Notes: a model not told the origin generated them from the letters alone. A stretch of 64,000 bases of DNA from an uncultured virus (IMG/VR IMGVR_UViG_2061766007_000547) (IMGVR_UViG_2061766007_000547); one strand, 5' to 3'; shown: positions 29,483-49,030, numbered from the stretch's first letter. Made by a program: numbers and translations.

Positions 29483-29516
29483 TTAATTTAAATAATATGG
29501 AGAGGAGGTTAATAAT

Positions 29517-31364
29517 ATGGGATTAGCTGTATGGCTTCCTTTAAACGGAAATATTAATAACTATGGTTATGGTACTATTACAACTACTGGAACTTCATCA
29601 TTTTCCACTGGTGGAAAAATAGGACAATGTTTAACCTCTTCTGGCGGTTTTAATGTTCATTACACAGCTTTAGCAGGTTCTAAGGTCTGGTCATTTTGTT
29701 TTTGGGGTTATGTTATAAGTGCTAATATAACAGCTAACTGGACTAGACTTATACAAATACTTGATGGAGGAGCTAATCTTAGAGTTGAAGTATGCCCTTC
29801 ATCATATCAAAATGGTGTATATTGTTATTCAACACATAATAATGCAACATATAATATTACTAATGCTAGTACTCACGCCCCAAATGGTGGATATTATGAT
29901 CAATGGCATCATTTTGCAATAACAAGTGACGGAGCAACTATATCAGTGTATGATAATGGAATTTTACGTGAAACTTGTGCATATGATGGCAGCGGCAGTG
30001 TTACTGGAGTCGTGTATATCGAAAATAGTGATAAAATAAAAAAGAATGACTTCCGTATCTACGATCATTGCCTCTCTCCCAAAGAAGTTAAAGAAATAAG
30101 TAAAGCATTAGTTTGTCATTATCCTCTTGATAATAACGGGATTGGAAGTCCGAATTTAGCTAAGGGGACAAACACCGCATCTACAGGCACTAATGTGTTT
30201 GGATATGGAGAACAGATTGGTGGTTCTAGTAGGACTATAGAATATGATGGTGGAATACCTTGTGCTAAAATAACAAGAAATACTACAGCTCATAGTGGAT
30301 GGGCTTATTTATATTATGATAATTTAGATGTACCAGCAATAAAGACTAGTACAACTTATACTGTTTCATTTGATGTAATTGCTTCTGGGGTTGGTAGTAT
30401 TGGTTGGAATGGGTTTATGATGGGTAATGCAACAAATAGTCTTTCTCAATCATTAACAACAATACAAAATACATTTAATGCTGATACATGGTCACATATA
30501 GTATTTCAGGTTACAACTAAAAGTTCATTTGATGGTATAACTGTGGGTTCTCAACTTATATATATGAATACTGCTTATTTACAAGGAACAGGCACATGGC
30601 TTAAAATGAAAAATATGAAAGTTGAAGAAGGAATCAAAGATACATCATGGTGTCCCCACATTTCAGACGCTATTTATTCAATATTTAATATAAATGGAAC
30701 AACTGAGTTTGATACTAGTGGATTTAAGAATAATGGAACTAGAAATGCTATTACTATAGTTTCAGATTCACCAAGATATTCCTGTGCTACAAAATTTGAT
30801 GGAAGTACTTCATTTATAGCTTGCGGTAGAGGTGGAATGGTTAAAGATGAAATTACTCTTAATGTATGGGCTTACATGAATGACTGGTCAACTGTAAGTG
30901 ATATGAGAATAGTTTCATGCACTGAAGGCGGTGGATGGTGCATTGGTTATGTTACTGATGCTCTTAAATTCTATTGTGGGACTGGTACTACCTCAAATAC
31001 ATATAAGACAGTTACAGCAATAAAAAATATGAAAACATTATCTGCTGGTTGGCATATGTTTAGCGGAACTTATAATGGACTACAAACCAAGATATATATT
31101 GATGGTATTTTAGATAATACTTTGGACGGTTATACAACAAAAACACCATTATTTTATAATTCAAATAACGGTATATTTATAGGAGCCGAAGCTGGTGGCG
31201 ATCAAACTACCCCTATTAGTGGAAGTAAATTTCCAGGAAATATTTCAGATGTTCGCATCTATGCTACCGCCCTCTCGGATGCAGACATCCTAGAACTCTA
31301 TAATACAGGTGCATCAATTGATAATGGCGGAAATGTATTAACATATGATATACAAGAGAAATGA
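29517..31364 (+). CDS. LamG/concanavalin-A-like lectin tail protein
   Basis: Two LamG signatures (WHHFAITSDG..VYDNG..DFRIYDHCLS and WHMFSGTYNG..IYIDG..DVRIYATALS) flanking a CBM-like region (MKVEEG..W). Confidence 0.8.
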   Translation: MGLAVWLPLNGNINNYGYGTITTTGTSSFSTGGKIGQCLTSSGGFNVHYTALAGSKVWSFCFWGYVISANITANWTRLIQILDGGANLRVEVCPSSYQNGVYCYSTHNNATYNITNASTHAPNGGYYDQWHHFAITSDGATISVYDNGILRETCAYDGSGSVTGVVYIENSDKIKKNDFRIYDHCLSPKEVKEISKALVCHYPLDNNGIGSPNLAKGTNTASTGTNVFGYGEQIGGSSRTIEYDGGIPCAKITRNTTAHSGWAYLYYDNLDVPAIKTSTTYTVSFDVIASGVGSIGWNGFMMGNATNSLSQSLTTIQNTFNADTWSHIVFQVTTKSSFDGITVGSQLIYMNTAYLQGTGTWLKMKNMKVEEGIKDTSWCPHISDAIYSIFNINGTTEFDTSGFKNNGTRNAITIVSDSPRYSCATKFDGSTSFIACGRGGMVKDEITLNVWAYMNDWSTVSDMRIVSCTEGGGWCIGYVTDALKFYCGTGTTSNTYKTVTAIKNMKTLSAGWHMFSGTYNGLQTKIYIDGILDNTLDGYTTKTPLFYNSNNGIFIGAEAGGDQTTPISGSKFPGNISDVRIYATALSDADILELYNTGASIDNGGNVLTYDIQEK

Positions 31365-31375
31365 GGTGCTAATTT

Positions 31376-32455
31376 ATGGGAAGCAAGATATCAAAAGAAG
31401 GCATAGTTAGTGCTTCAGGTTCTACTGTAAATAGAAATATGATGTACACAGTTCCATTAACTTATGCTAGTGGATCATATAATGCATACGTTATTAATTT
31501 AAATGAAAATATGGTAGCTGGACAAAAATATACATTACAAATATGGGATGCTGATGTTTCTCATAGTGCTAAGACTGCTGATCAATTGTCTATAGCTTTT
31601 TATTGGGGCGGCGGAATGAATATAGAAGCACAATTCTACATTCCAACTGGACATACGGATTATATGGCAAAAACATTTACTGCACAAAATGCTGCTAGTA
31701 CAAGTGATGCAACTAAAACTGTATTATATGCTTGGAACTCGCCAGGTAATGCTGATGGTACTCGTAATATGAGAATTGGTAAATGGAAACTTGAAAAAGG
31801 TGAAGTTGCTACTCCATTCACATTAGCTCCTTTATATTGTCCATATGATACTACTATTTATACTGAACCAGATGGTAGTCAATGGATTCGTATAATACAT
31901 GAAGGAAATCCAACTAATAATACTTTATTTAGTAGTGGAAATACATTTACTGTTTCAGTATATATCAGTACTGCATTTTGGTTTTATGGTTCAATATGCG
32001 ATCAATTAAAAGATTCATGGGAATTGATGGTGAAACAAAAAACCACAGAAAGTGCTACTGAAGCAAAATATAGATGGATTCAATATGCTAATCCAATGTC
32101 TTGTGTTTATAGTGACGTAATAACTTCTAAAGTTACTAAAATCACTACTAGTGGTTATAGTAATAATACTTCTTATGGTGGTATTTTCAAAAAGAACTCT
32201 AGTACATATTTGGCTGCTGATAATAGCACAAGTGGTAGTAACTGGTTTGGTGCATTTGGTTGTTGGACAGCTTATAACGGTGGTATTCCTGGATGGGCTG
32301 GAGAAACAGTAACAACAGGTTATATGGATCTCTATCTCCGAATAGATACTACTCTAACTAATCCATCTAATAATCATGGACTATGTGAATCAAATTTATA
32401 CCCAGGCAAAATTGGTAATGATTGGATTCAAGCAAATGAATTTATAGAAATTTAA
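31376..32455 (+). CDS. putative receptor-binding/lectin-like tail protein
   Basis: KWKLEKGEVATP CBM-like motif, then an aromatic-rich YTEPDGSQWIRI domain. Confidence 0.55.
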   Translation: MGSKISKEGIVSASGSTVNRNMMYTVPLTYASGSYNAYVINLNENMVAGQKYTLQIWDADVSHSAKTADQLSIAFYWGGGMNIEAQFYIPTGHTDYMAKTFTAQNAASTSDATKTVLYAWNSPGNADGTRNMRIGKWKLEKGEVATPFTLAPLYCPYDTTIYTEPDGSQWIRIIHEGNPTNNTLFSSGNTFTVSVYISTAFWFYGSICDQLKDSWELMVKQKTTESATEAKYRWIQYANPMSCVYSDVITSKVTKITTSGYSNNTSYGGIFKKNSSTYLAADNSTSGSNWFGAFGCWTAYNGGIPGWAGETVTTGYMDLYLRIDTTLTNPSNNHGLCESNLYPGKIGNDWIQANEFIEI

Positions 32456-32568
32456 ATAAAAATCAAAATGGGTAGACTACTCACTTCGTTCCTAGTACAA
32501 TTTCTTCACTATGTTCGGAAATAGTAGTTCTCACCAAAGATTCAAACTAAAACAAAGGAGGTCAACAC

Positions 32569-35500
32569 ATGGCACATTTAGGTAATACCGTTGTAAATGG
32601 TGCTTTAAGGGTTATAGGCGGAGAGAACGTTGATACCATTAATGGTGTTACCGTTGGCTCTTCTCCTAAGTTTACGGATACAAATAATAGAAAAGCTTTT
32701 GCATGTACTTGTTCGTCAGCAGCTGATGCTGCGGCTAAAGTTGTTTCATTAGTTGATACAACTGGTTGGGAGCTTAGGGCTGGTGTTGTAATCGGTGTTA
32801 AGTTTACTAATACCAATACTGCTTCATCATGTACATTAAATGTAAATGGTAGTGGTGCTAAGAGTATATGGTATGATAGTGCTGCATATACTGGTAATAC
32901 TAATTGGATTTGTGGTATTGCTAGTAGATATATATATTATATGTATGATGGCACATACTGGGTTTGGTTAAACTTTGGTTGGCATTCTGATAGTAATAAT
33001 GCAGTAACTCAGACATCTACCACAACGAATGCAAATTATGAAATACTCTTCTCACAAACAGCTGATGATACTACTAGAACGGAAGGTGCTAGAAAGACTA
33101 CTACATTAAGGTTTAATCCATCTCTTGGCGCTTTAATGCAAGGTAATGCCACTGTTGCAGGTGGAAGTTATTCTCATGCGGAAGGTCAAACTACTTCAAC
33201 TTCAGCTTCATATGCTCATGCAGAAGGAGGAAAAACCACTGCTAGTGGTACGAGATCTCATTCGGAAGGTGAAAATACAATAGCTTCAGGTGAAGATTCT
33301 CATGCAGAAGGTAATAATACAAGAGCTGTATCATTAGGTGCTCATTCAGAAGGTTACATGACAACTGCTAGTGGTAATTATAGTCATGCTGAAGGACATA
33401 CTACAAGTACATCTGGTACGAGTTCTCATGCAGAGGGTAAAAATTGTACATCTGGTGGTGATTATTCTCATGCTGAGGGCTATCTGTCAATAGCTAGTGG
33501 TGCTTATGCACATGCAGAAGGTCATCAAACAACAGCTTTAAACAATTATTCTCATGCAGAAGGATTATCTACATCGGCAAAAGGTAATTATTCACATGTA
33601 GAAGGTGGTTTTACAAGTGTATCTGGCAATTATTCACATGCAGAAGGTTATCGTGCATTAGCTAGTGGTCATGGTACGCATGCTGAAGGTGGTTATACTA
33701 CTGCTAATACAGGTGGCGGTACGGTAGCTAGTGGTGAGAATGCACATAGTGAAGGTATGGAAACAACTGCTTCAGGTCGTAATTCACATGCCGAAGGAGA
33801 ATCTACAAGTGCAGTTGGTAGATCATCTCATGCTGAGGGATTAAATGCAACTGCAAATAGTGATTATTCACATGCAGAAGGATATCAAACAAGATCCGCA
33901 GCAGCTTATACACATGCCGAAGGTTATTCTACAGTTGTATCTGGTCAATATTCTCATGTTGAAGGTGCTAATAATAGATGCAGTGGAGAATTTGCACATG
34001 CTGAAGGTAATGGTTCTACTGCTAATGCTGGCGGAGCACATGCTGAAGGACATCAAACAATAGCAAGTCAAACATATACTCATACAGAAGGTCAATATAC
34101 GCGAGTTTCAGGCTCATATGCACATGCAGAAGGTAATAGTACAACCGCTGCAGTTTATGCACATGCAGAAGGTAATAGTACAAGTGCTGCAGCTTCTACA
34201 AGTCATGCAGAAGGATATCAATCTACTTCTGGTGGAATATATTCTCATGCAGAAGGATATCAAACTAGAACTTCTTCTCAAGGTGCACATAGTGAGGGTA
34301 TTGGCGGATTAGCATCAGGGCAATATTCACATACTGAAGGTGGTAATAATATTGCATCAAATACGTATGCACATGCAGAAGGTAGTAGTACTACTGCTAG
34401 CGGAGGTAGTTCTCATGCAGAAGGTGCTAATACAAGTGCATCTGGTAGTAATTCACATGCTGAAGGTAATGGTACTCATGCCGAAGGTGCATCATCTCAT
34501 TCAGAAGGTCATCAAACAACAGCTTTAAATAATTATTCTCATGCTGAAGGATTATCTACATCAGCAAGAGGTAATTATTCACACGCCGAAGGACATGGTA
34601 CCTCTACTTATGGTTCTTATAATCATAGTGAAGGAGAATATACATTAGCTGGTGCCGATGGTGCTGCTTATGCACATGCAGAAGGTAATGGAACAAGTGC
34701 TATTGCTAGTGGTGCTCATACGGAAGGAAATACTACTAAAGCATGGGGAATACATTCGCATGCTGAGGGCGGATTGACAAGCGCCTCTGGTTCGTATGCT
34801 CATGCTGAAGGAAGATATACAAAAGCTGGTGGTCTCAATTCGCATGCGGAAGGTTATCGTACATTAGCTAGCGGAAATGGCGCACATGCAGAAGGCGGTT
34901 ATACTACTGCTGAAACTGGTGGTGGTACAACCGCAAGTGGTAATAATTCACATTCAGAGGGATATGAAACTACAGCAATTGCTAGTAATTCTCATGCCGA
35001 AGGACAATCTACATGTGCTGCTGGTTCTTCTTCTCATGCCGAAGGTAGAAGCACAACTGCTCAGGCTAATTTTTCACATGCTGAAGGTCAAAGTACAATA
35101 ACTAGTGGGGAATATTCTCATGCTGAAGGATATAATACACGTGCTAGTGGTTCTTATACTCATGCGGAAGGATATCAATCTACTTCTGCTGGAGTATATT
35201 CTCATGCTGAAGGACAAGCTAGTATAGCTAAAGGTAGTTACTCTCATGCTGAAGGACGAGCAACAACTGCAAATGACGATTGTTCACATGCAGAAGGATA
35301 TAATTCAAGTGCTGGAGGTGAATATTCTCATGTTGAAGGTTATGGTACAAGAGCCATAAATAATTATACCCATGCTGAAGGCAGTTATACGACTACTAAT
35401 GCAGATTATTCGCATGCAGAAGGCAGTCGTACCTTAACTACAGGAACAACTTCGCATGCAGAAGGCAGTTATACGACTTCTCAAAATGCAAATTCGCATG

Positions 35501-36228
35501 CTTCAGGACATTACAATGCAGCTATGACAACTGGTGGCGGAGCTGGTAATACAACTGGTACAGCTTTTGTCATAGGTAATGGTACATCAGCTACTGCTTT
35601 AAAGAATGCGTTTTCAGTACAATTCAGTGGTGTTGTTAAGGCTGCATCAACTATCACAGCATCAACAACGGCAGACTATGCAGAGTACTTTGAGTGGGCT
35701 GATGAGAATCCTAATAATGAAGATAGAGTTGGATACTTTGTAACATTTGATTCTGGGGATAAAATCAAAATAGGTAGTCCCGAAGATGAATATATTCTTG
35801 GAATAGTATCTGGTGAACCTTTCGTATTAGGAAATGGCGATTGTGATGTGTGGAATGGTATGGTTATGAGAGATGCATTTAGGCGTACTATATATGAACC
35901 AGCACCGAAATATGAATACTTACCACATGGTGAAGCAATTTTAGCTAAAGATAAAGATGGTAAGCAAATATATGAAGGTACTAAACCTAAATACAATCCT
36001 AATTATGATCCTACTCAGCCATATATTAATAGAGCAGATAGACCAGAGTGGAGTGCTGTCGGAATGTTGGGTGTTCTTGCTGTACGAGACAATGGTCAAT
36101 GTCAGGTGAACAGTTATTGTACTGTTGGACAGAACGGCATTGCCGTGCCTGCTGATCATGATTCGATACATAAGTATAGAGTTATTAAACGAAATGCAAC
36201 TAATGTTGTAGAAGTTGTATTTAGATAA
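32569..36228 (+). CDS. long fibre/appendage 2 with ~55 SHAEG repeats and a C-terminal peptidase G2-like autocleaving chaperone
   Basis: Long 14-aa repeat array; C-terminal ADYAEYFEW..GYFVT..ILGIVS..Y.NR..RPEW.AVGMLG, as in the phi29 preneck appendage chaperone. Confidence 0.8.
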   Translation: MAHLGNTVVNGALRVIGGENVDTINGVTVGSSPKFTDTNNRKAFACTCSSAADAAAKVVSLVDTTGWELRAGVVIGVKFTNTNTASSCTLNVNGSGAKSIWYDSAAYTGNTNWICGIASRYIYYMYDGTYWVWLNFGWHSDSNNAVTQTSTTTNANYEILFSQTADDTTRTEGARKTTTLRFNPSLGALMQGNATVAGGSYSHAEGQTTSTSASYAHAEGGKTTASGTRSHSEGENTIASGEDSHAEGNNTRAVSLGAHSEGYMTTASGNYSHAEGHTTSTSGTSSHAEGKNCTSGGDYSHAEGYLSIASGAYAHAEGHQTTALNNYSHAEGLSTSAKGNYSHVEGGFTSVSGNYSHAEGYRALASGHGTHAEGGYTTANTGGGTVASGENAHSEGMETTASGRNSHAEGESTSAVGRSSHAEGLNATANSDYSHAEGYQTRSAAAYTHAEGYSTVVSGQYSHVEGANNRCSGEFAHAEGNGSTANAGGAHAEGHQTIASQTYTHTEGQYTRVSGSYAHAEGNSTTAAVYAHAEGNSTSAAASTSHAEGYQSTSGGIYSHAEGYQTRTSSQGAHSEGIGGLASGQYSHTEGGNNIASNTYAHAEGSSTTASGGSSHAEGANTSASGSNSHAEGNGTHAEGASSHSEGHQTTALNNYSHAEGLSTSARGNYSHAEGHGTSTYGSYNHSEGEYTLAGADGAAYAHAEGNGTSAIASGAHTEGNTTKAWGIHSHAEGGLTSASGSYAHAEGRYTKAGGLNSHAEGYRTLASGNGAHAEGGYTTAETGGGTTASGNNSHSEGYETTAIASNSHAEGQSTCAAGSSSHAEGRSTTAQANFSHAEGQSTITSGEYSHAEGYNTRASGSYTHAEGYQSTSAGVYSHAEGQASIAKGSYSHAEGRATTANDDCSHAEGYNSSAGGEYSHVEGYGTRAINNYTHAEGSYTTTNADYSHAEGSRTLTTGTTSHAEGSYTTSQNANSHASGHYNAAMTTGGGAGNTTGTAFVIGNGTSATALKNAFSVQFSGVVKAASTITASTTADYAEYFEWADENPNNEDRVGYFVTFDSGDKIKIGSPEDEYILGIVSGEPFVLGNGDCDVWNGMVMRDAFRRTIYEPAPKYEYLPHGEAILAKDKDGKQIYEGTKPKYNPNYDPTQPYINRADRPEWSAVGMLGVLAVRDNGQCQVNSYCTVGQNGIAVPADHDSIHKYRVIKRNATNVVEVVFR

Positions 36229-36251: not shown

Positions 36252-37274
36252 ATGAAACTTTCAATAGTTATTCCGTGTTGGAATTGTGAAAAGACAATAG
36301 GTAGATTATTAGATTCGATAGTAGCTAATGGTTTATCCAAAGATGATTATGAAGTCATAATATGTAATGATAGATCAACAGATAATTTCTTAGATGTTGT
36401 CAAGACATACGAGGATAAAATGAATATTGTGTATTGTAATACCACAAGAGAATTTCATTGTCCTGGAAATACCAGACAGGCTGCTCTGCCCTATATTAAG
36501 GGCGACTGGTTTACATTTATTGACAATGATGATATGTTTGAGCCAGATGCATTTAAAACTGTTTTAAAGTATATTCAGGATAATAATTTGCAATACACAT
36601 TAGTTACATATTTTCGTCAGTTTTTTTATGAAGAAAATAAATACGGAAGGACTTTCGAACATGAAGAAACTGATACATGGCTTCATGGCAAATTCTTTAA
36701 TCGGGTAAATACGCTTGATAAGTTTCATTGTAGATTTAAAGATGATATGTTCTCGCATGAAGATTTATATTTTAACTCATATAATCTTGCATGTTTGATA
36801 AATGAGGGACGGGATTATGATTACCTGCCAATATACACATACAAGTGGGTACATAATCCTACTTCTTTATCAAGATCATATTTTAGCAAGAAAGACTTCT
36901 ACATTGAAACATATTTAGGTGATTACTTAATGGGCGGTTCATATCCATACTTTGATATGTATAATGAAACTGATAAGCCCGAAACAAAAGACTTTGCATG
37001 GAATCAGGTTCTTATGACATTCTTACATGGTTATTTCTATTATCAGGCAAGCATATGGCGTTTAGGACAGCATAATACTCTTGATGACGCCTATGTTGCT
37101 TTAAGACAATTCAAGAAAAAGATTATTGAAGAATTACATACAACAGATGCAGATATAATTAATTATATATATAGTATGCCAGAACGTTATGATCATGTTA
37201 AACTTGGTTGTAGGGCTGGCAGTAATGCATTTGTTGAAGCACAAAGTTTTAGGGACTTTGTATTAAATTTATAA
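36252..37274 (+). CDS. glycosyltransferase family 2 (GT-A)
   Basis: LSIVIPCWN, VIICNDRSTD, FTFIDNDD (DxD), HEDLYF. Confidence 0.88.
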   Translation: MKLSIVIPCWNCEKTIGRLLDSIVANGLSKDDYEVIICNDRSTDNFLDVVKTYEDKMNIVYCNTTREFHCPGNTRQAALPYIKGDWFTFIDNDDMFEPDAFKTVLKYIQDNNLQYTLVTYFRQFFYEENKYGRTFEHEETDTWLHGKFFNRVNTLDKFHCRFKDDMFSHEDLYFNSYNLACLINEGRDYDYLPIYTYKWVHNPTSLSRSYFSKKDFYIETYLGDYLMGGSYPYFDMYNETDKPETKDFAWNQVLMTFLHGYFYYQASIWRLGQHNTLDDAYVALRQFKKKIIEELHTTDADIINYIYSMPERYDHVKLGCRAGSNAFVEAQSFRDFVLNL

Positions 37275-37587: not shown

Positions 37588-37642
37588 TGATATAATTTTA
37601 ACATGTTTTTGATACGTTTCTAATCTGATTATATGTTACAAT
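37588..37642 (+). promoter_or_regulatory. 11-bp-period direct repeat array plus extended -10 upstream of endolysin
   Basis: TGATATAATTT/TAACATGTTTT/TGATACGTTTC/TAATCTGATTA, then TATGTTACAAT. Confidence 0.55.
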
Positions 37643-37662
37643 GTCAGAAAGGAGGTAATAAG

Positions 37663-38460
37663 ATGGCGAAAGTTAAACTTAATGACTGGCTTGATTATCT
37701 GAAGAGCCGTGTTAATATTGACCTTTATGTCTGGGGTGCTAATGGACAGCTGTTGGTTGATATCCTGAATAACTTGCGTGAAATGGAAAAGAATGAGAAC
37801 GATCTTGATCGCACTCTCACACTGTTGCAGAAACGACTTCGTGCAAATGTAAATATCTATGACATTTGCTGTGAAGATTGTAGCGGACTTGGCGTCAAGT
37901 TTTTGCTGCCTCGAAAATTAATTCCATACGATATGACGGCTAATGGCTTGTATGGATATATCGTAGGCACTAAAGAGATAGCGCCTCATGGTAAGAGTAT
38001 TCCTTTGTCAAAAGTTAAGGCTGGCGACTATCTGTTTAAAGGCAGTGATTCCAATAAGACGCATATCGGATATGCAATAGATTCCGAATGGGCTGTTGAA
38101 AGTCAGGATCATGATGTAGGCGTGGTTAAGACACGTATATCAGATCGTCCGTGGAAGTATGCTGCCCGTCCTAACTGGTATTCGGATTCTCCTGATCCTG
38201 AACCTACAAAGCCTATCTTAACCAGAGAGCTGTATTATAAAAAGACCAGCGATGGTTATATAGTAATCAGGGGTGATGATGTTAAGGAGGCTCAGGTATT
38301 ATTGACCGAACAGGGATATAATTGTGGCGAACTTGACGGAATATTTGGTAATAATACTCAAATTGCCACCAAAAACTTCCAGCATGATAATAATCTTGAC
38401 GAGGACGGCGTAATCGGCAAGAATACAGGCACAATGCTTGGTTTTGAATGGAAAGGATAA
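37663..38460 (+). CDS. endolysin (NlpC/P60-like catalytic domain plus peptidoglycan-binding domain)
   Basis: YVWGANG, EDCSGL, THIG; C-terminal GDDVKEAQ..L..GY..G.LDGIFG..T..A...FQ....L..DGVIG..T. Confidence 0.85.
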   Translation: MAKVKLNDWLDYLKSRVNIDLYVWGANGQLLVDILNNLREMEKNENDLDRTLTLLQKRLRANVNIYDICCEDCSGLGVKFLLPRKLIPYDMTANGLYGYIVGTKEIAPHGKSIPLSKVKAGDYLFKGSDSNKTHIGYAIDSEWAVESQDHDVGVVKTRISDRPWKYAARPNWYSDSPDPEPTKPILTRELYYKKTSDGYIVIRGDDVKEAQVLLTEQGYNCGELDGIFGNNTQIATKNFQHDNNLDEDGVIGKNTGTMLGFEWKG

Positions 38461-38469
38461 CAAGGACAT

Positions 38470-39228
38470 ATGAAGATTTCACGCTTTACTACTGATGAAA
38501 TATTGATGTTAAAAGAGAAATGTAACTTCTCTGCTACTGAACTTAAGTGCTTTGAGCTTAAAGCAAAAGACTACACCAATACGCAGATCACATTTGAACT
38601 GGGCATGTCATCTTCTAGCGTTGCTATCGCTATGAGGCGCATACGTGAAAAGATAACATTCGTCATGGAACGGCACATACAGGAAATGGGTTCTTCTACA
38701 GCTGTAGAAGGGTGTAATGGCAGTGGTTGTCCTGTGTATCATACTATGCAAGAGTGGGCGCGAATGCCAGATGCTCTATCTGTAAGGGGACGCCTGTATA
38801 TCTATGGTGATTATAGAACAGATGATGATGTCAGTATCCCTCGTATAAAAGTTGGAGATGGCGTTACTTCCATTTCTGCCCTGCCCTTTGCTACCATGTC
38901 GATAACCAATAACGACATGGAGCGCTGGGACGGGCGCTCAGAAACAGAGGGTAATAATCTGGGCGATGTTGTATGGCTTGATGATAGTTGTACTGTTGAT
39001 AAGCCGTTCACATTCCATACTGACGGATATATCGTATTAGTATTCAGATCAAGCAGGGACTTTGCCAAAGTCAATATCTATAGTGCAAGCATGAAATCTT
39101 TCTTTATATTTGAGAAACCAACTGATATCGATATTCATTCAAAGGAAGTCTTTGTTCGTAAGGGAATGAAATGTGTACATGTTTCATCTTCTGATGGTGC
39201 TAAGATTAAATTCGTGCCCTTGATATGA
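38470..39228 (+). CDS. HTH (LuxR/sigma region 4-like) regulator fused to a Mtd_N-like tail-fibre domain
   Basis: N-terminal CNFSATELKCFELKAKDYTNTQITFELGMSSSSV...RRIREKI; central segment paralogous to the 21428-21877 protein (RIKVGDG..LPF). Confidence 0.65.
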   Translation: MKISRFTTDEILMLKEKCNFSATELKCFELKAKDYTNTQITFELGMSSSSVAIAMRRIREKITFVMERHIQEMGSSTAVEGCNGSGCPVYHTMQEWARMPDALSVRGRLYIYGDYRTDDDVSIPRIKVGDGVTSISALPFATMSITNNDMERWDGRSETEGNNLGDVVWLDDSCTVDKPFTFHTDGYIVLVFRSSRDFAKVNIYSASMKSFFIFEKPTDIDIHSKEVFVRKGMKCVHVSSSDGAKIKFVPLI

Positions 39229-39302
39229 TAGTTTTTTGATAGTTTTTTAACAGTTTTATGATTTGATTATGATAAGTCGTAGCCCGATTTTTATGGTAAC
39301 AT
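39226..39302 (+). promoter_or_regulatory. 11-bp-period direct repeat array plus extended -10 upstream of the cassette
   Basis: TGATAGTTTTT x2, TAACAGTTTTA, TGATTTGATTA, TGATAAGTCGT; TATGGTAACAT downstream. Confidence 0.6.
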
Positions 39303-39334
39303 AACCTCATCAACAAGGAAGGAGGTATCGGGCT

Positions 39335-39718
39335 ATGGCTTATATATTTGCTAATACTAATCCTAAGCGCAAAATGACAAATGATTGTGTTGTCAGGGCG
39401 ATCAGTTTAGCGACGGGCAGATCTTGGAACGAAGTGTTCTGGGATTTGGCTGATGAATTGTATAGTGAAAAAGAAACATGTATGGACGCAAATAAGATAT
39501 GGGGACAGTATCTTGAGAAACAGGGTTGTCAGCGTTATATGATCTCCGATCCCTATGTTACACATTATACTTTACGCCAGTTCTGTGAGGATAACCCTAA
39601 GGGTACATACGTTGTAGGAACTGGAACACATGCGGTTTGTGTGATACATGGCGACTATTATGATACATTCAATAGTGGTTCGGTAACTCCTCTTTATTAT
39701 TTTTTCGTGGAGGAATAG
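39335..39718 (+). CDS. small putative papain-like Cys-His-Asp enzyme
   Basis: NP..TNDCVVRAIS ... GTHAVCVIHGDYYDTFNS. Confidence 0.55.
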   Translation: MAYIFANTNPKRKMTNDCVVRAISLATGRSWNEVFWDLADELYSEKETCMDANKIWGQYLEKQGCQRYMISDPYVTHYTLRQFCEDNPKGTYVVGTGTHAVCVIHGDYYDTFNSGSVTPLYYFFVEE

Positions 39719-39721
39719 CCG

Positions 39722-40072
39722 ATGTATTATCAAAATCCAATGTATAACTTGAATACTCAGCAGCAGGCGTCGAACTGTTTTGTTGGAGTATCATGCGAGA
39801 ATGAGGCAAGAAGTTATCCCGTGGCTTATGGTAACAGTGTGACATTCAAAAATGAGAATGAACCATATCTGTATTCAAAGACCGTATTGTCACAGATGGA
39901 GGCGCCGATATTTAAAAAGTATCGCCTCGTTGAAGAATTGCCTCAGAATGCCCCTCAAAATTCTCAGGGGTATGATTTATCCACTTTTGTAACAAAAGAC
40001 GAATTTGGGGCATTACAGAAAGAATTACGGACACTTCAGGAAGCGTTAGGAGGTGTCGGCAATGTTAAATAA
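39722..40072 (+). CDS. hypothetical protein (Q/N-rich N-terminus)
   Basis: GGAGG RBS; EARSYPVAYGNSVTF...FVTKDEF. Confidence 0.65.
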   Translation: MYYQNPMYNLNTQQQASNCFVGVSCENEARSYPVAYGNSVTFKNENEPYLYSKTVLSQMEAPIFKKYRLVEELPQNAPQNSQGYDLSTFVTKDEFGALQKELRTLQEALGGVGNVK

Positions 40073-40262
40073 GCAGAACCTCATGCAGCAGTATCAGCAG
40101 TTGAGACAGAATCCAGCGGCGATATTGTCAAAGAAGTATAAGTTTCCACAGAATATGAACATGACAAATTCAGATGATATTATCCAGTATCTTCTGAATA
40201 CAGGACAGGTAAGCCAGTCGGAATATAATATGATACGACAGGCGGCAAGAGCATTTAATTGA
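40062..40262 (+). CDS. small Q/N/M-rich hypothetical protein
   Basis: AGGAGG RBS before the ATG at 40062; IIQYLLNTGQVSQ. Confidence 0.6.
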   Translation: MLNKQNLMQQYQQLRQNPAAILSKKYKFPQNMNMTNSDDIIQYLLNTGQVSQSEYNMIRQAARAFN

Positions 40263-40355
40263 TATTAAAGTCAGTGCGCAGGGCTTTGATATAAAACGAT
40301 CATTCAATATGGAGGAATGATTGTAAACCTATAATAGTTTTAGGAGGAAATATTT

Positions 40356-41237
40356 ATGGCACTTGAGGACAATGGAATTGTGCCCACAATGCCGTTATCT
40401 CCCAGTAATGGAAGCGGCTTTGGTGGATTTGGCGGCGATGGCTGGCTTATCCTTCTCCTTCTCTTATTCGCTGGTGGCGGATGGGGTGGCTTCGGCGGAG
40501 GTTTTGGCGGTGGCTATGGAAATGCTCAGTTAAGTTATGACTTCCCATGGTTGCTTAATGGTCAGAATGCTATCAATGCTAACACAAATGACGGATTCCG
40601 TGATGCTATGATCAACAACGGAATCAGCAGTATTCAGAATGGTATCACCAGTGGTTTTGGCGATATTCAGACAGCGCTCTGCGGTGGATTTGCAGGCGTA
40701 AATGCAACTATTAACGGCGGACTGGCTGGCGTAAATTCAGCGATATCAAATGGATTTGCAACGGCAGAAAGTTCAGCTAATGCAAGGCAGATGGCTAATA
40801 TGAATCAGGCGTTTGCAAATCAAACGGCAATGAATCAGGGGTTCAATGGACTCCAGAGCCAGATGGCGACATGCTGTTGCGAAAATAGATTAGGACTTGC
40901 TAATCTTACTTCTACAATTCTTTCTGAGAATTGTGCTGATAGAGCTGCTATCTCTGATGGCATTCGTGATATCATCACAAATCAGACAAGTAATACCCAG
41001 CGTATTCTTGATAAACTCTGTGAACAGGAAATAGAGAATTTACGTGAACGTAATATCTCTCTCCAGAATCAGGTAAATATGCAGAACCTTGCAGCTTCAC
41101 AGGCTACACAGACTGCGCAGTTAATTGCTGATAATACAGCACAGACACAGTATTTAGTTAACAGAATCGCTCCGTATCCTTCGCCCGCATATGTGGTGAA
41201 CTCTCCTTATTCAACGCCTACAACGGCAACTGCTTGA
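40356..41237 (+). CDS. Gly-rich membrane-anchored coiled-coil protein
   Basis: GFGGFGGDG-WLILLLLLFA-GGGWGGFGGG, N/Q-rich heptads, CCCENR motif, Pro-rich tail; strong RBS. Confidence 0.75.
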   Translation: MALEDNGIVPTMPLSPSNGSGFGGFGGDGWLILLLLLFAGGGWGGFGGGFGGGYGNAQLSYDFPWLLNGQNAINANTNDGFRDAMINNGISSIQNGITSGFGDIQTALCGGFAGVNATINGGLAGVNSAISNGFATAESSANARQMANMNQAFANQTAMNQGFNGLQSQMATCCCENRLGLANLTSTILSENCADRAAISDGIRDIITNQTSNTQRILDKLCEQEIENLRERNISLQNQVNMQNLAASQATQTAQLIADNTAQTQYLVNRIAPYPSPAYVVNSPYSTPTTATA

Positions 41238-41253
41238 AGGGAGGCTGACGGGT

Positions 41254-41538
41254 ATGCATTCAATAGAAGAACTCGAAAAGCTCTGTCACAAAGCGATGGA
41301 GTCGATAGCGGAAGCAAACAAAAAACTCGAAAAAGACGGCGAAAAGCTGACCAGCAGTGATGCTGAGTATCTTGCTTATCTTGTCAAGATTGCAAAAAAT
41401 TGTAAGATTGTTATAGGTATGGAAGAATATGATGACGGATATTCAGGAACCTATGGTGACGGCTATTCTGGTGCAAGATACAGAATGAGACGTTATAGTA
41501 TGGACGGACATGAACCTATGACATATCGCAGATATTAA
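41254..41538 (+). CDS. hypothetical protein
   Basis: GGAGG RBS; helical N-terminus and a GYSG repeat. Confidence 0.65.
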   Translation: MHSIEELEKLCHKAMESIAEANKKLEKDGEKLTSSDAEYLAYLVKIAKNCKIVIGMEEYDDGYSGTYGDGYSGARYRMRRYSMDGHEPMTYRRY

Positions 41539-41547: not shown

Positions 41548-41635
41548 AAAGAGGGGCAGTCAATCCGACTGCTCTTCTTTTATATATATGAGGATTCAAT
41601 ATGGCAATCCCGAATTATCGTGATTGCCTTTTTTT
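41548..41635 (+). terminator. two tandem intrinsic terminators
   Basis: GGGGCAGTC/GACTGCTCT plus T-run (41548-41581), and GGCAATC/GATTGCC plus T-run (41603-41635). Confidence 0.65.
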
Positions 41636-41656: not shown

Positions 41657-41881
41657 ATGTTGAAGAAGCTGGCTAAGTTGGTTGATGTTAAAAGTATTGT
41701 AACATTAACACTGACTGGAGTTTTTGCTTATCTATCAATTATTGGCAGCGTGAATGCGGAACAGTTTCTTACGATCTTCACGACAATTATCGCATTCTTT
41801 TTTGGAACCAAAGTCGGTAAGCAGGAAGCTCAGGATCAGGCTGAAGAGGAAAAAGAGAAACATGATGACGATGTTTCCTAA
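41657..41881 (+). CDS. holin-like two-TM protein
   Basis: Two hydrophobic helices (SIVTLTLTGVFAYLSII; FLTIFTTIIAFFFG) and a charged tail; GAAAGGGG RBS. Confidence 0.6.
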   Translation: MLKKLAKLVDVKSIVTLTLTGVFAYLSIIGSVNAEQFLTIFTTIIAFFFGTKVGKQEAQDQAEEEKEKHDDDVS

Positions 41882-43670: not shown

Positions 43671-46600
43671 ATGGCACGATATAGTTATCAACATATAAGT
43701 AAAGAAATAGTTGGTGAACTTGAACATGATTTGCGAGAAGAAATTTCTAAAATTGATCTCCCAGGTATTATTCGAGATTCGTTAAAGAAGTTTCATATTG
43801 ATATTGAAGATATAGATATTCAGGATAAAAATTTTAAACTTGCTCTTGAACGTGGTTTGTTTTATGCGTTGAACCAAGTTAAGCGTGATATTAAAGTCGA
43901 TATGGGCGCTATTGATCTTGAAGAATTTGTCTCGTTGGATAGAGATGCGATGAATAAGAAATTAAAAGAACTGTATGGTGGTATGCAAAAAGCAATTAAA
44001 GAAAATGATAAAGAATTGGCTCGTCAATTCAGAGATGATTTCTTTGCTGCCATGACAGTTGCTACCGCAAATAATATTCCGTTTCTTAAAGAGTTTTCTG
44101 CACAATGGAAAAAAGCATATAAAGATGCTTTAGACGATATAGATCAGGCAACACAAACGAGATTCCAGAAACTGCAAATTGAAATTCAATCCCGTTTAGA
44201 AGATATGCAGAGAGCAAAGATTATTGCTGAAAATACGACAGCTCACTTACGTCAAAAGGGACATTCTGACGAAGAAATACAAACATTATTAAGTAATTTT
44301 CCACAGTTAAGTGCTGTAGCTAAAAATGCAACAAAGTCGCAAAAAGAATTTCAAGAAACTGTGGACGATACCAATTCTAGTATTGATGTTAACGGCAAGT
44401 CTTTACGTGAACTTGTTGAGTTATATCAACAGTTGGGAACGAATGGTGGAACGCAAAAGAGCTTAGAAGAAGTATCTAATGCAATTTTAAATATTGTTAA
44501 GGCTGAACGTCAACTTGATCCTGATGAAATGAGTCGTTTTACCGAGATTTTACAAAAGTTGACGGCGTCTGGTGAAGGTGGCGATATTGCAGATAGATCA
44601 TTTTCTATTGATGAGGCGATGAAGGCTTTATCTGAAGTTGAAACAATAGAAAGCAAGTTAAAACGTGCTCATCAAGATAATGTAAATCTCAAAACTCGTA
44701 TTGACGATCTTGAAGAACAACTTGAAATTACTAATGACCTTTCAGAAAAAATTGAATCAGTTAATGATGATTTAAGAGAACGCAATAGACTTTTAGAACA
44801 GGAGCGTAATACTCTTAGTAATAATCTTGAAGAAGAGAAAGAAAAAACTGCGGAACTTAAAGAACAAAATAAGTTATTAGAAGAACAGAGAAATGATGCT
44901 GAATATGACGCACAACATTCTAATTGGTTGGCTAATGAATATGCTAATAAAGCGTGGGACGCTGAAGATGAATTAAAAGCGGCAAATACACAAATTGAAG
45001 AATTAAAAGATAAGCTGAAAGATGTTAGTGCATTATCTCAAAATGAGGTAGAAGCTTTGCAAGAACAAGCTGCAGAGTTACGTGCCAAGGTTGAACTGCT
45101 TGAAGAATACAATGAATATTTGAGAAACAATAATATTGGAGAAGGGTGGGCAATGGCTTCAAGTTTTGAACGCGATCTTGATGATGCGCGTGATAAAATT
45201 GAAGATCTTGAAAATCAATTAAAAGAAGCAGCAAAAACGTCTCAAAATATTATGTCTGCTGGCGGCATACTTGATCCCGCTAATACTTCACAACTTGTTA
45301 ATTCTTTAGAAAAAATATCTAATGTTCTTGAGGATATCCGTGCAACGTTGGGTACGATTGATGATAATAATGGTTTTAAAAATCTTGTTACAAGTATTGA
45401 TGAACTTTTAGGTAAACTTGAGGCTATACAATCTAAAGTTGGTACTGGTGTTTATAATGTTCAGGTTCATCAAGGTGTAAGTCGAGAAGCGCTTTCGGCG
45501 TCGCAGGCAAGCGATTCGTATATTAGAGATACATATTCAAGATATGCAAATGCTTTTCAAAATATCACTGCTAAAGCTGGCAGTGAAGAAATATTGTTTT
45601 CGTATATTAATTCAGCTATTAATATTGCTGGTGGTATTGACGCATTACAGGAGGCATTTGGATCAATAAATGTTGCGCAAATAAATTCATCCGAAGAACG
45701 TATTCAGCGTCTTATGAAATTCTTTGGTGTTTTGCGTGAAGCAATGCAATCTCCGTATTTTGGACTTGATCTTAAAGGTGTTAAACTGCCAGCTTCTGAT
45801 GATGCTACTTTTAGATCTAAATTGAAAGAAATGAGTTTGTCAACTAAAACTGGTGATGAGTTGACTAATTTGACAGATGATACTGCAGAATTATCAAAGA
45901 TTGTTAATAAACTTGAAGAAATACGTGATCTTTTAAATCAGATTGTACAAAATAATAGCTTAAACGAATTGTTTACTTCTGCTGCAGATAAGCTTAATGA
46001 ATTATTAATAGGCTTAAAAAATATAGGCTTTGTTAGTGATGAAAGCAATATATTACGTGAATTAAAACAAGAACTTGAGGGTGTAGCACAGGCAATCCGT
46101 AATAAAAATGAATTGTTTGAAGCCGAGGACAATATAGTTTTTGGCACTATCAATTCAGAAATTGAAGTTCTTGAAACTTTGCGTCAGAAAATTGATAATG
46201 TAGTACAGGCAGTTCGTGCTAAAAATAACGAATTTGAAATTGAGGGCACTGTTGCAACACAAAGTATTCAAAAGGAAATTGATGCTCTTACTGAATTAAA
46301 GAATGTATTATCTGGACAGCTTACATCGCAAGGCGCAGGTGAAGAGCTTGATTCATTTAAGCAGCTTAAGGATATTATTAATGATATTCAGAGTGCTATT
46401 GATAATAAAACAGCTTCATTATCAAAAGAAATTGAAACTGCGGTTAATGAACTTCCGCAAGAAATTCTTTTATTTGAATCTTTGCGTAATACTATAGAAT
46501 TTATAAGTCAGCGTATAGCTGTTATTAATCAAGGCATAAGTAGGATTTCTAGCTCTGGTATGCTAAATGATTACAGGCAACAGGAAAGAAGAACTCAACA

Positions 46601-47843
46601 GCAGGCAGATCAGGATAGACGGCGTCAAGAAAGAGAAGAACAACAGAGACAAAGAGAGGCTCAGAGAGCTGCTGAAAGAAGGCAGCGTGAAGAACAAGCT
46701 AATATTAATAGACAGTCACGTAGAGTTGTTCAATATTATAAGAGCCTTGAAAGAAGTGAGGAAAGATATCAAAATCTTCTTGCAAAACGTAATGCTGGTG
46801 AAACTTTAACTCAACCTGAAAATTCACGTTTAGTTATGCTACAGGGTGAGCGTGATATGCAGGAGCAGATTTTAGCAACACTCCAGCAGGAAACTGAAGA
46901 AGTTATTAGAGAACGTGATGAATATGAACAGTTACGAGATCGTGCAATTGAAGCTGCACGTTATTCTTTAAATCAGAAATATATTAATGATATTACAAAG
47001 AATATGCGTAGCCTTCAGGCAAAAATTGACTCTGGTAAATATACAACCTTTTCTTCAAATGTAGCTCGGCAGGGCTTAAATGATATTAGAGATAATAGCG
47101 GATATTTGCAAGAAGAAAATGTTGATGCGTTAAGAACTTATATATCTTTGTTGGCTAATTTAGATAAACAGTTAACAAAAACTGCTAATAATACTAAGTT
47201 GACAAAGATGCTTGTGGACGTCAATACTGTAATTGCTGATAATTCTAAGATGTCTAGAGAATTAATGAGCGATTTCAGAAATCTTGCTGTGCAGATTCAA
47301 GATGCGATTGATACGGGTGCGCCTGCAGAGCAAATACAGGCATTATCACAGCGATTTTTGCAGCTGAAAAGTGCAATGATCAGTACTGGGCAAACTGGCA
47401 AATCATTTATTAATACAATTAAAAATGATATTTCGCAAGCTTCTGCTCGAATGATTGCACAATATATGTCATTCCAAGATTGGATAAGATATATACGATT
47501 GGCTATTGAGGCTGTTATGGAACTTGACAGTGCATTAACACAGTTAAAGATTGTTAGCGGTGCAACTGACGGTGCATTACAGGGCGTGGCAAGAGATGCG
47601 TATACTCTTGCAAATAATCTTGGTATGAGTACAGCCGAGGTTGTATCTTCTATCACTGAATGGAGACGTTTAGGTAAGACTATTGACGAATCTATGATAT
47701 TGGCTGAGCAGGCTGCAAGACTTTCAACTGGTGGTTTGATGGATATCAATAGTGCAACTACCGCTCTCGTATCTTCAATGCAGGCATTTGAAATGGGTGC
47801 TGAAGAAGCAAGTAGAATAGTTGATCAGTATATTTATTTGGGT
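43671..47843 (+). CDS. tape measure protein, exon 1
   Basis: Long coiled coil ending in the TP901-type TMP core (ELDSALTQLKIVS...EWRRLG...IVDQYIYLG). Confidence 0.85.
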
Positions 47844-49030
47844 AAATAATTGCCCATAGATAACTATATCGGTTAAAGGCTGGGGACAGTTAAGACCGAG
47901 GAAAGGTAATATGTTCATTATTATCATCCTGAAAGGGGTGATTTTTTATTATTAAAAAAGATCGTACTGGTGAAAAATTTGGTTATTTAACAGTTATTGG
48001 TATGATACAAAAACCAAACAAGGATAATAAATTAAATACTTTTTGTAAGTGTCAATGTGTATGTGGAAATATTGTTAACAAATCATATTCTGATTTAAAA
48101 CGTTCATCTATCGTTTCATGCGGATGTCGTTTGTATGAACGTAATGAAAAACAGGTTTGTAATATGACTGGGCGTAGATTTGGTAGATTAACTGTTTTAT
48201 CTGATTATCGTTCTGATCAAAAACACAGAAGATTATTATGCAAGTGTGATTGTGGCACTATTAAAGAATATAATAAAACAGATGTGACTTCTGGTCATAC
48301 AAAATCATGTGGGTGTTTATGGATGGACGATTGTTGTCATGCAAATGAAAAAGATTGGACAGGACAAATATCAGAAGCTGGTGTTAAATTTATATCAAAA
48401 GCACATATGAATAAAAAGGGACAATGGTTGTGGAATTGCGAATGTCCGTTATGTCATAGTGTTTTTATTATTTTACCAGCAAAAGTAATGTCTAATCATA
48501 CTTCATCTTGTGGATGCAGAATTAAATCTTTAGGAGAACAATTTATTAGGGAAATATTGGAAGAAAATCAAGTTGAATATATTCCACAGTATTCTTTTGC
48601 AGATTGTCGAGATAAGAAGAAATTAAGATTTGATTTTGCATTATTAAAAAATGGAAAAGTTTTTTATCTGATTGAATTTGATGGTGGGCAACATTATCAA
48701 CCAGTAAAATATTTTGGTGGTCAAGAACAATTTGATAAACAACATGCACGTGATTTATTAAAAGATGAATATTGTAAACAAAATAATATTCCACTTACAA
48801 GAATAAAATATACATTAAGTAAAAATACAATTAAAAAGATGATAATGAACATATTGAATCCGTAACGACTGCAGGATATATATGGTAACATATATATTGA
48901 AGTTATCTCAATTCGTATGAATTGCAATATACAGTCTGGACTCACGATATAATCTAATAATGAAACGTGAGAAGTAGCCAGAAATGACTACTCGCCTAAT
49001 AAATCATTAGGTCACAAAAGTAACAGGACG
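47844..49030 (+). mobile_element. group I intron in the tape measure gene
   Basis: P1 UGGGU/GCCCA with U47843.G; P3 AGAUAACU (47858)/AGUUAUCU (48901); P4-5 UCGGUU..GACCGA; P7 GACUG (48867)/CAGUC (48932); terminal G at 49030. Splicing restores ..YIYLG-NNYAITSEGLA.. Confidence 0.88.
47951..48865 (+). CDS. intron-encoded endonuclease: three Cys-rich repeats plus a Vsr/DUF559-like nuclease domain
   Basis: Repeats TGxxFGxLTV..CxCxCG..SCGC; C-terminal SLGEQFI..LRFDF..LIEFDGGQHY..DLLKDEYC..IPLTRI. The frame extends upstream of the ATG at 48002; start uncertain. Confidence 0.75.
   Translation: MKKDRTGEKFGYLTVIGMIQKPNKDNKLNTFCKCQCVCGNIVNKSYSDLKRSSIVSCGCRLYERNEKQVCNMTGRRFGRLTVLSDYRSDQKHRRLLCKCDCGTIKEYNKTDVTSGHTKSCGCLWMDDCCHANEKDWTGQISEAGVKFISKAHMNKKGQWLWNCECPLCHSVFIILPAKVMSNHTSSCGCRIKSLGEQFIREILEENQVEYIPQYSFADCRDKKKLRFDFALLKNGKVFYLIEFDGGQHYQPVKYFGGQEQFDKQHARDLLKDEYCKQNNIPLTRIKYTLSKNTIKKMIMNILNP

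Follow-up and report, generated by a model that had tools for sequence, protein, structure and literature searches.

Five adjacent genes of an uncultured virus (IMG/VR IMGVR_UViG_2061766007_000547), located at positions 39335–41538 of a 64,000-nucleotide (nt) stretch that we refer to as the window, are best explained as one autonomous accessory cassette of Clostridia phages and not as virion genes. The cassette encodes a predicted papain-like Cys-His-Asp peptidase (A), two small Q/N-rich proteins (B and C), a predicted single-pass membrane protein (D) and a helical protein with GYSG repeats (E). As the original prediction, made from the sequence alone, had proposed, the five genes point in one direction and are framed by an endolysin gene and a helix-turn-helix (HTH) gene on one side and by a holin-like gene on the other. 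We tentatively propose that their products build an assembly which is matured by the protease, anchored in the membrane and connected with lysis; a role in conflict or superinfection exclusion is nearly as likely.

Recurrence of the cassette

A tblastn search with D retrieved 19 phage records, including that of the cultured Butyrivibrio phage Ceridwen, which contains the same gene run (products of 126, 121, 66, 275 and 151 amino acids (aa), among others), annotated as hypothetical. The gene order in Ceridwen is A B C D F9. E G8, where F9 and G8 denote accessory families described below. In the accessible part of the paper on this phage (PMC7372960), the cassette genes remain hypothetical and virion proteomics is not reported. 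Relatives of D were confirmed by two scans, 130 of them in viral contigs (80 kept) and 181 in species-representative genomes (80 kept). The species-representative matches all belonged to gut or rumen metagenome-assembled genomes, mostly of Clostridia, with some bin labels being probable mis-assignments. The family of D comprises at least 8000 clusters at 90% identity and 1218 clusters at 50% identity (E ≤ 1e-3); among 150 of the latter listed, lengths range from 100 to 367 aa and the conserved domain is located toward the C-terminal end. A blastn search with 7.5 kb of the window against 50,697 phage records gave no match.

Genes around D were counted in 161 loci with hidden Markov models built from the first clusters; this set includes the window and Ceridwen as well as some near-duplicates, so that the co-occurrence counts overstate independence. 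Where at least 1.8 kb upstream of D was available, A was present in 129/139 loci, C in 119/139 and B in 108/139, and E was found in 127 of the 142 loci with at least 1.5 kb downstream. The order A-B-C-D-(F9)-E-(G8) was kept across loci with A always in the first position, at 38–57% identity of D to the protein of the window, and the families of A, B, C, D and E made up the five largest clusters in 81 phage loci. The earlier suggestion that such gene sets recur in Clostridia phages as genes of no assigned function was thus confirmed, as was their co-occurrence elsewhere in the gene-neighbourhood census that had been suggested as a check. The genes did not map to characterised virion components either, their PHROG families all being annotated as 'unknown function'. 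The cassette is a real, sharply defined and very widespread unit and not a chance neighbourhood. A full-text search for the five PHROG identifiers found no paper in the library searched, and the listings obtained for phage C39-like peptidases, papain-like anti-defence proteases and lysis or conversion genes of Lachnospiraceae prophages contained nothing relevant. Judged by sequence, the cassette members match nothing described, apart from the fold of A.

A predicted papain-like peptidase

In an alignment of 61 homologues, the residues P10, D17, C18, L60, F83, H99 and D110 of A are invariant, in agreement with the Cys-His-Asp enzyme that had been predicted. The AlphaFold2 (AF2) model of A (pLDDT 93.3, pTM 0.88) shows C18 opening a helix (residues 18–27) and H99 and D110 at the adjacent strands 100–104 and 107–110, which is the arrangement expected for a papain fold. 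Structural alignment by VIA-align gave Z scores of 6.3–7.0 with prostaphopain B, the peptidase domains of PCAT1, ComA and LahT150, Josephin and AvrPphB, followed by UfSP, ZUFSP and viral tegument deubiquitinases (DUBs) and then by OspI (Z 5.3) and PeiR (Z 5.8). Of the 50 rows listed, 49 were cysteine-peptidase or amidase-type chains, the exception being 8brf (YopQ). Model and alignment thus bear out the protease fold that had been assumed. To the extent that a model allows, A can be called confidently a minimal papain-like Cys-His-Asp peptidase by fold, the family not being assignable at Z near 7. The fold call rests on VIA-align, since a Foldseek search of the model against the PDB yielded no match at E ≤ 0.001; a BFVD search with the same model returned 17 matches at E ≤ 0.001, all of them uncharacterised phage proteins.

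At the sequence level, A matched phrog_3754 (1.8e-26), no Pfam family at E ≤ 0.1 and no NCBIfam entry at E ≤ 1, and its profile found nothing in the PDB beyond a chance glutaredoxin (E 0.76). A cluster neighbouring A is automatically named 'Peptidase C39-like' in the Atlas. A-like proteins are common in phages, all uncharacterised, and fused forms occur in six proteins of 350–405 aa whose extra part contains neither Pfam domains nor cassette families.

A predicted membrane-anchored, Cys-rich helical protein

For D, a single pass through the membrane is predicted, along with a large amphipathic-helical domain that is rich in Cys and poor in Lys. An acidic N-terminal tail, the most variable part of the protein, is followed by a Gly-flanked and Trp-bordered transmembrane (TM) helix with runs of GG on both sides, by 11-residue GF repeats, a CCC motif, a long amphipathic helix and a Pro-rich C-terminal tail; about 230 residues form the Cys-rich amphipathic helix. 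Gly accounts for 12.6% of the residues, and the hydrophobic core lies at about residues 29–40. The CCC motif (C173–C175) is invariant in 61 sequences together with G80, F81, R196, Q215, I217, D219, L236, S248 and Q249. In the AF2 model, helices span residues 31–39, 64–99, 125–162 and 174–271; the mean pLDDT is poor (59), with blocks in 201–270 reaching 82–92. Hydropathy and the AF2 model agree in predicting a single TM anchor followed by long helices, as would be expected of the membrane-inserting protein that had been postulated. The Gly-rich hydrophobic N-terminal segment and the CCC motif of that proposal were found as well, but the N/Q heptads were not: the helix is amphipathic with a period of 3.6–3.8, and for residues 190–271 the power amounts to 27.5 at 3.6 versus 6.9 at 3.5. 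Because the helices are not a heptad coiled coil, the suggested likeness of D to fusion or pore proteins is an analogy only.

The D protein of the window contains 0.3% Lys and has a calculated isoelectric point of 4.3 (family median, 1.1% Lys and 10 Cys), and its single Lys lies in a conserved Q-x-ILDK-x-C motif. D matches phrog_16490 (1.3e-31). Pfam matches were confined to generic coiled-coil families under the cut-off (CCDC92 in 19/61 members), and the structures listed by the Atlas (TM-score ≤0.51; SPFH, RmuC, TPR) were dismissed as long-helix look-alikes. Mimicry of a tape-measure protein was likewise rejected, as D showed no similarity to the tape-measure protein of this phage (best E 0.013 and 0.066 in single comparisons). 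D has no Pfam holin match, though its neighbours match holin families; holins usually have fewer than 150 aa, one to four TM segments and a charged C-terminus, a description from which D departs with its 293 aa, one TM segment and acidic, Pro-rich C-terminus.

Partner proteins and accessory families

The two small Q/N-rich proteins that had been described are indeed encoded, with 8.6% Q and 9.5% N in B and 15.9% Q and 13% N in C. B matches phrog_21718 (1.1e-7) and C phrog_22984 (1.3e-5), and none of the 5795 relatives of B (E ≤ 1e-5) is named beyond 'hypothetical protein'. E consists, as predicted, of a helical half and two GYSG copies, and its alignment revealed a conserved GYS and a RDSMGRYS-type motif. 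No match to E was obtained in Pfam, the PDB or PHROG; B, C, E and F9 lacked matches in Pfam, NCBIfam and PADLOC, and the profiles of B, E and F9 found none in the PDB. None of the proteins B to E carries a canonical double-glycine leader. Since A, B, C and E contain no hydrophobic segment (maximum 19-residue hydropathy ≤0.83), they should be cytoplasmic.

Relatives of the cassette contain additional families. F9, a β-rich protein of about 154 aa with conserved Cys pairs (phrog_20016), is encoded between D and E in 82/142 loci, and its strand pattern recalls, in our view, TNF/C1q-like jelly rolls. F9 is absent from the window; an example is found at L053:6702–7166. One of the helical proteins G8 or G27 follows E in 41 and 13 loci, respectively. 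Homology of E to G8 or to the C-terminus of D was considered and rejected (hhalign probability <1%). Directly 5′ of A, 62/139 loci encode H11, an HTH protein of about 70 aa of the GerE/sigma-region-4 type with weak sigma-70 matches, and T15, a single-TM protein of about 90 aa, occurs in 40/139 loci. The window represents the minimal form A B C D E, with the larger protein HTH252 in place of H11.

Gene layout in the window

The window derives from a large tailed phage of gut or rumen Clostridia, and all of its genes lie on the + strand. The section from 37.6 to 42.6 kb contains, in this order, the endolysin gene, the HTH gene, a 106-nt gap, A to E, a 118-nt gap with two terminators and the holin-like gene, which is followed by a zinc-ribbon gene and a gene for a RuvC-like resolvase (Table 1). 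Strong Shine-Dalgarno sites precede all five cassette genes. B starts 3 nt past the stop codon of A, C overlaps the end of B, and E begins 16 nt past D. The spacer between C and D recurs in relatives with a median of 70 nt, measured to the start of the longest open reading frame (ORF) of D. The ORF of C is listed from GTG 40053 (69 aa); because AGGAGG stands 8 nt 5′ of ATG 40062, the latter is the likelier start. The listed TTG start of the holin-like ORF (41624) falls inside terminator 2, and AAAGGGG precedes ATG 41657, which is probably the start of this gene.

Table 1 Coordinates of the cassette and flanking features, counted from the first nucleotide of the window
Feature	Coordinates	Strand	Description
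Endolysin gene (context)	37633..38460	+	PG_binding_1 1.7e-12, weak NLPC_P60 0.0018 (Pfam); PHROG endolysin families
HTH252	38470..39228	+	N-terminal GerE/sigma-70-region-4-type HTH and 180-aa C-terminal part of no known family
Tandem repeat	39226..39247	+	Two 11-nt copies of TGATAGTTTTT in the 106-nt gap 5′ of A
Leader hairpin	39272..39343	+	Inverted repeat; pairs Shine-Dalgarno site and AUG of A
A127	39335..39718	+	127 aa; predicted stand-alone papain-fold Cys-His-Asp peptidase, C39-like and DUB-like
B116	39722..40072	+	116 aa; Y/Q/N-rich N-terminus, conserved domain of ~60 aa, C-terminal amphipathic helix
C	40062..40262	+	66 aa; Q/N-rich helical protein
C-D spacer	40263..40355	+	93 nt
D293	40356..41237	+	293 aa; predicted single-TM, Cys-rich helical protein
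E94	41254..41538	+	94 aa; helical N-terminal half, Tyr/Gly/Arg-rich tail
Terminator 1	41548..41580	+	14-bp stem, A-tract before and U-rich run after; same hairpin flagged on the - strand by the terminator scan
Terminator 2	41603..41635	+	GGCAAUC/GAUUGCC stem, then U7
Holin-like gene (context)	41657..41881	+	Two hydrophobic segments, charged C-terminus; phrog_13256 7.1e-19, annotated function unknown

HTH252 begins 9 nt past the stop codon of the lysin gene. Its GerE match (4.1e-4, 20.4 bits) is under the Pfam cut-off of 23.5 bits, and its homologues match GerE at 1.3e-6 and 3.3e-4, with one homologue reaching 28.4 bits; the upstream HTH gene that had been named is thus confirmed. Homologues of the holin-like gene are located directly 5′ of a lysin gene in three loci (L010, L028 and L049). 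In the window, the holin-like gene sits behind two terminators, apart from its endolysin.

Leader, terminators and transcription

The original prediction had assigned the cassette a repeat-array promoter. This was not confirmed, as the gap upstream of A contains only the two tandem 11-nt copies of TGATAGTTTTT, possibly an operator or promoter element, and no sigma-70-like site: a scan found none in 39229–39334, with 33 sites region-wide compared to 31.8 expected. The predicted structured leader, in contrast, was recovered as a hairpin that masks the ribosome-binding site and AUG of A, with a folding energy of –34.9 kcal/mol (z –4.3) that none of 200 shuffled sequences equalled. Its stem is a long, near-perfect duplex; lacking a clean U-run, it may serve in RNase III-type processing or as a translational lock instead of as a terminator. 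Neither the leader nor the terminators matched an Rfam family, apart from sub-threshold chance matches. The double terminator 3′ of E was supported by folding of both hairpins with their U-runs (z –4.2) but not by a simple terminator scan, which flagged neither + strand hairpin and found 3 sites versus 3.5 expected, not above chance.

In relatives, a terminator-like hairpin with a T-run lies within 200 nt 5′ of A in 80/126 distinct loci and within 200 nt past the last cassette gene in 91/141 loci, compared to 67/378 random 200-nt windows of the same loci. Many of the upstream hairpins end 20–55 nt before the start of A. Since terminators 5′ of the H11 gene are at background level (13/58) and the hairpin stands between the HTH gene and A, the HTH gene appears to close the lysis transcription unit. 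Located behind a hairpin, the cassette must depend on read-through or on a very compact promoter after the hairpin. A bovine-gut metatranscriptome (X1) contained six short contigs on 37896–40641 at a depth of 2–6.3, which attest to presence in an RNA library only and have no bearing on timing, transcript ends, level or the uncovered parts.

Neighbouring genes in relatives

Neighbouring proteins were clustered and scanned against Pfam, first as a set of 56 representatives and then as 132 representatives of a second set of 191. The commonest identifiable upstream neighbours were holins (Dp-1, holin_4_1, holin_1, r1t, Hol44 and holin_6_1 types) and endolysins (CHAP+SH3, ELLD, GH25, amidase_2/3, M15, glucosaminidase), encoded on the same strand, as were GerE-type HTH proteins. 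Upstream sequence of at least 3 kb was available for 107 loci, and in 50 of these Pfam identified a holin or endolysin gene on the same strand less than 3 kb before the cassette; the remaining contexts were anti-defence-type (3), early or other (5), structural (4), other (2) or without any identified gene (43). Linkage to lysis genes is kept in three arrangements, namely holin-lysin-HTH-cassette, which is common, lysin-HTH-cassette-holin, as in the window, and holin-cassette-787 aa-lysin (L036). Downstream, tyrosine integrases (36 loci, 31 on the opposite strand), serine recombinases and XRE repressors were found, or early genes, these in the same orientation as the cassette (SNF2 helicase, SSB, ERF, PD-(D/E)XK), and an integrase or serine recombinase flanks the cassette in 28/107 loci. 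In some relatives, GT1, GT2 or GT10 genes are located just upstream of the cassette (L004, L081, L129).

Comparison with known systems

A shares its fold and approximate size with C39 domains, aligning with PCAT1 (151 aa) at Z 7.0 over 106 residues, with ComA (135 aa) at Z 6.7 over 105 residues and with LahT150 at Z 6.3 over 105 residues. It keeps the Cys...His...Asp order with the Cys at a helix N-terminus and has conserved Asn7/Asn9 at what we take to be the place of the C39 oxyanion Gln. The fold is not specific to C39, since staphopain, Josephin and AvrPphB score equally well. Unlike C39 domains, A does not match Pfam Peptidase_C39 (PF03412) at E ≤ 0.1 and stands alone, with no ABC exporter among the 56 + 132 scanned neighbour proteins. 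Proteases of ubiquitin-like modifiers (Josephin, bacterial 'clippases', UfSP, ZUFSP, herpesvirus tegument DUB) are structural neighbours of A as well (Z 5.4–6.9). Papain-fold enzymes of this kind cut after a C-terminal Gly or Gly-Gly, and Gly and Gly-Gly motifs are abundant in D; however, A shares only 7–14% identity with them and the cassette contains no ubiquitin-like gene.

In outline, D resembles i-spanins of the lambda Rz type and PBSX XhlA, in that it adjoins holin and endolysin and has one TM segment and a long helical domain; conserved Cys and a Pro-rich end are further features that it presumably shares with Rz. It differs from spanins in the lack of a lipoprotein partner, as B, C and E have neither signal peptide nor lipobox, in its larger size and its helix, which is not a heptad coiled coil, and in the terminators that part the cassette from the lysis genes. 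The hosts, moreover, are mostly Clostridia, which are taken to be monoderm.

The cassette can also be likened to morons and superinfection-exclusion genes (HK97 gp15, lambda bor, Ltp/Sie2009 of dairy phages), since it, too, is found near int in the variable region with which the late operon ends. Flanking terminators, of which the window has two and which recur in relatives at the frequencies given above, and a membrane protein are shared with morons. In contrast to these, the cassette has five to nine genes including an enzyme, is kept across a very large phage group and also occurs in phages lacking visible lysogeny genes. The prophage-borne SPbeta sublancin locus sunA-sunT is comparable in that it combines a C39-type peptidase with a product that contains Cys and is processed at Gly-Gly and with an immunity protein of the membrane, but the cassette lacks an ABC transporter, a small precursor peptide, a glycosyltransferase and a thiol-disulfide oxidoreductase. 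In PADLOC, A to E, HTH252, F9, H11 and T15 were unmatched at E ≤ 0.1, and weak matches were confined to G27 (DpdE, 0.0053) and the holin-like gene (0.02).

Possible functions of the cassette

In the lysis-linked assembly that we tentatively prefer, D would sit in the host cytoplasmic membrane and anchor there a complex of several proteins, its partners being B, C and E. A would mature a low-complexity member, either D at the Gly-rich linkers beside its TM helix or E at its GYSG tail, a role suggested by the structural neighbours of A, which mostly cut after Gly or Gly-Gly, and by the GG runs flanking the TM helix of D. Most transcripts of the cassette would start in the lysis operon and read through the leader hairpin, so that the assembly would be made late; at the membrane, it would join holin and endolysin in setting the time of envelope breakdown or in bringing it to completion, in the manner of XhlA-type or spanin-type accessory lysis proteins of other phages.

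Several observations weigh against this proposal. On the protein side, both flanks of the TM helix of D are free of Lys and Arg family-wide, so that charge gives no topology. The N-terminus of D contains no conserved leader motif tracking A, and its tail has at least three variants; a loose MxxPxxP was seen in 57/128 loci with A and 1/10 without A, a difference that is uninformative as A-less N-tails look normal. A also occurs alone, without D, in Bacillus Tsamsa-like phages, where it lies in an early or accessory region with an Ocr-like gene nearby, as in phage Izhevsk, and in Geobacillus phage GBK2; A-like uncharacterised proteins are also encoded by phages of Gram-negative hosts. Since A stands alone in these phages, it may have a host-directed role of its own. 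On the genomic side, 43/107 upstream contexts contain no identified gene, early genes precede the cassette in some loci, and genes for Tad2-like (anti-Thoeris, PF11195, 5.9e-22; L065:3786–4046), ArdC-like (L016:2607–3494) and Lar-like (L158:1133–1315) proteins lie just upstream of it in others, which marks this slot as an accessory or anti-defence hot spot. A terminator between lysis genes and cassette and a dedicated HTH gene are, in addition, unusual for lysis genes and typical of morons and conflict systems, and monoderm hosts are not known to require a third lysis component.

Much of this evidence would fit a moron-like conflict system, placed in the variable region that separates the lysis genes from lysogeny or early genes, in which a membrane complex blocks DNA entry of other phages or counters host defence and A acts on a protein of the host or of a rival phage, for example a ubiquitin-like conjugate. 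We consider this nearly as probable as the lysis-linked assembly. The bracketing of the cassette by terminator-like hairpins well above the random background, its dedicated HTH gene, the integrases and serine recombinases in its flanks, the slot that it has in common with Tad2-like, ArdC-like and Lar-like genes and the solitary A near an Ocr-like gene in Izhevsk all point in this direction, as do the deubiquitinase-like and effector proteases among the best structural neighbours of A, the variability of the exposed N-tail of D and the accessory members F9, G8, G27 and B, which come and go. However, no cassette member matches a PADLOC model at E ≤ 0.1, and with the 1218 clusters of D and its many invariant residues the cassette far exceeds typical exclusion genes in distribution and in conservation. 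It is also found in phages lacking a visible lysogeny module (the window and Ceridwen), and the leader hairpin leaves little room for a promoter of its own.

The membrane system could be narrowed down further by assuming that A, as a Gly-Gly-type peptidase, matures D and that D and its Q/N/Y-rich partners form a cross-linked membrane lattice, which would keep out the DNA of incoming phages or, as a functional counterpart of spanins, supply monoderm hosts with a third component of lysis; this version is doubtful. It is improbable that, by analogy to the spore coat, D, B, C, E and F9 polymerise into a cross-linked matrix, resembling a coat or a lattice, under a GerE-type regulator, with A processing or cross-linking them as a protease or as a transglutaminase/deamidase-type enzyme. 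The scarcity of Lys and frequency of Cys in D and its only Lys in the conserved Q-x-ILDK-x-C motif, the 29% Q+N of C, the Tyr/Gly/Arg-rich E, the conserved Cys pairs of F9 and the GerE type of the HTH are consistent with a matrix, and among the papain-fold enzymes there are also deamidases and isopeptidases, for example OspI and PeiR. The matrix is, however, an analogy only, no Pfam spore-coat or transglutaminase family was matched, and the host of Ceridwen is presumably not a spore former.

Even less probable is that the genes are not one system and that A is an independent host-takeover or anti-defence protease travelling with an unrelated D-E membrane unit. The occurrence of A without D in phages of Bacillus, Geobacillus, Prevotella (Lak) and others would fit such a partnership, as would the spacer that parts A-B-C from D-E. 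On the other hand, A is present in 129/139 D loci, where it invariably leads an unchanged gene order although D identity is only 38–57%, and A, B and C are tightly packed, B starting 3 nt past A and C overlapping B. We regard as least probable of all a role in the virion or in DNA ejection, in which D, as an internal or tail protein, would pierce the membrane and the small proteins would be assembly factors. In the L033–L036 group the cassette does follow scaffold-like and major-head genes and precede a 787-aa protein, in the window it lies among late genes between the fibre/lysin genes and the tape-measure gene, and the Gly-rich hydrophobic segment of D is of a kind that we associate with ejection and tape-measure proteins. 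Yet the cassette usually follows the lysis genes and stands apart from the structural block, and its position varies; terminators bracket the cassette, its PHROGs are of 'unknown function' and not structural, and D is unlike the tape-measure protein of this phage.

Further features of the window

Apart from the cassette, the window contains terminase, portal and glycosyltransferase genes, a tape-measure gene of great length and a repeat-rich fibre of 1219 aa. A phrog_4088 gene is split into 10420–10887 (profile 17–116) and 12079–12711 (profile 137–332) by a group I intron (RF00028, 74.8 bits, 10854–11214) with a GIY-YIG homing-endonuclease ORF (11212–11988) after it. The tape-measure-like gene also appears as two ORFs, 43671–47849 and 49070–54643, which cover consecutive phrog_4211 profile ranges; an HNH endonuclease ORF (48002–48865) lies between them, and Rfam calls no intron there. 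A 2120-aa protein and the 1219-aa fibre (23045–36228) both match phrog_25468; the fibre is made up of a SHAEG-type repeat of about 14 residues in dozens of copies and has a C-terminal pre-neck-appendage-like domain (phrog_4775). Three glycosyltransferase genes are found among the structural genes (19373–20479, 36252–37274 and 61130–62914). A tyrosine-recombinase-like ORF (7446–8366; phrog_1, 1e-15) directly follows the portal gene, an odd place for an integrase.

Significance

All protein families of the cassette are unnamed and yet very large, as the cluster numbers of D and the relatives of B illustrate, and their fixed gene order extends across phages of Lachnospiraceae, Oscillospiraceae, Ruminococcus and relatives from human, ruminant and other animal guts. 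A conserved unit of an enzyme and a membrane anchor beside the lysis genes ranks among the larger gaps in the understanding of gut-phage genomes. The cultured pair of Ceridwen and its host Butyrivibrio fibrisolvens DSM 3071 makes the cassette directly testable. A role in lysis, if true, would call for a revision of the view that monoderm hosts are lysed by two components, while a role in exclusion or counter-defence, if true, would represent a new and common conflict system.

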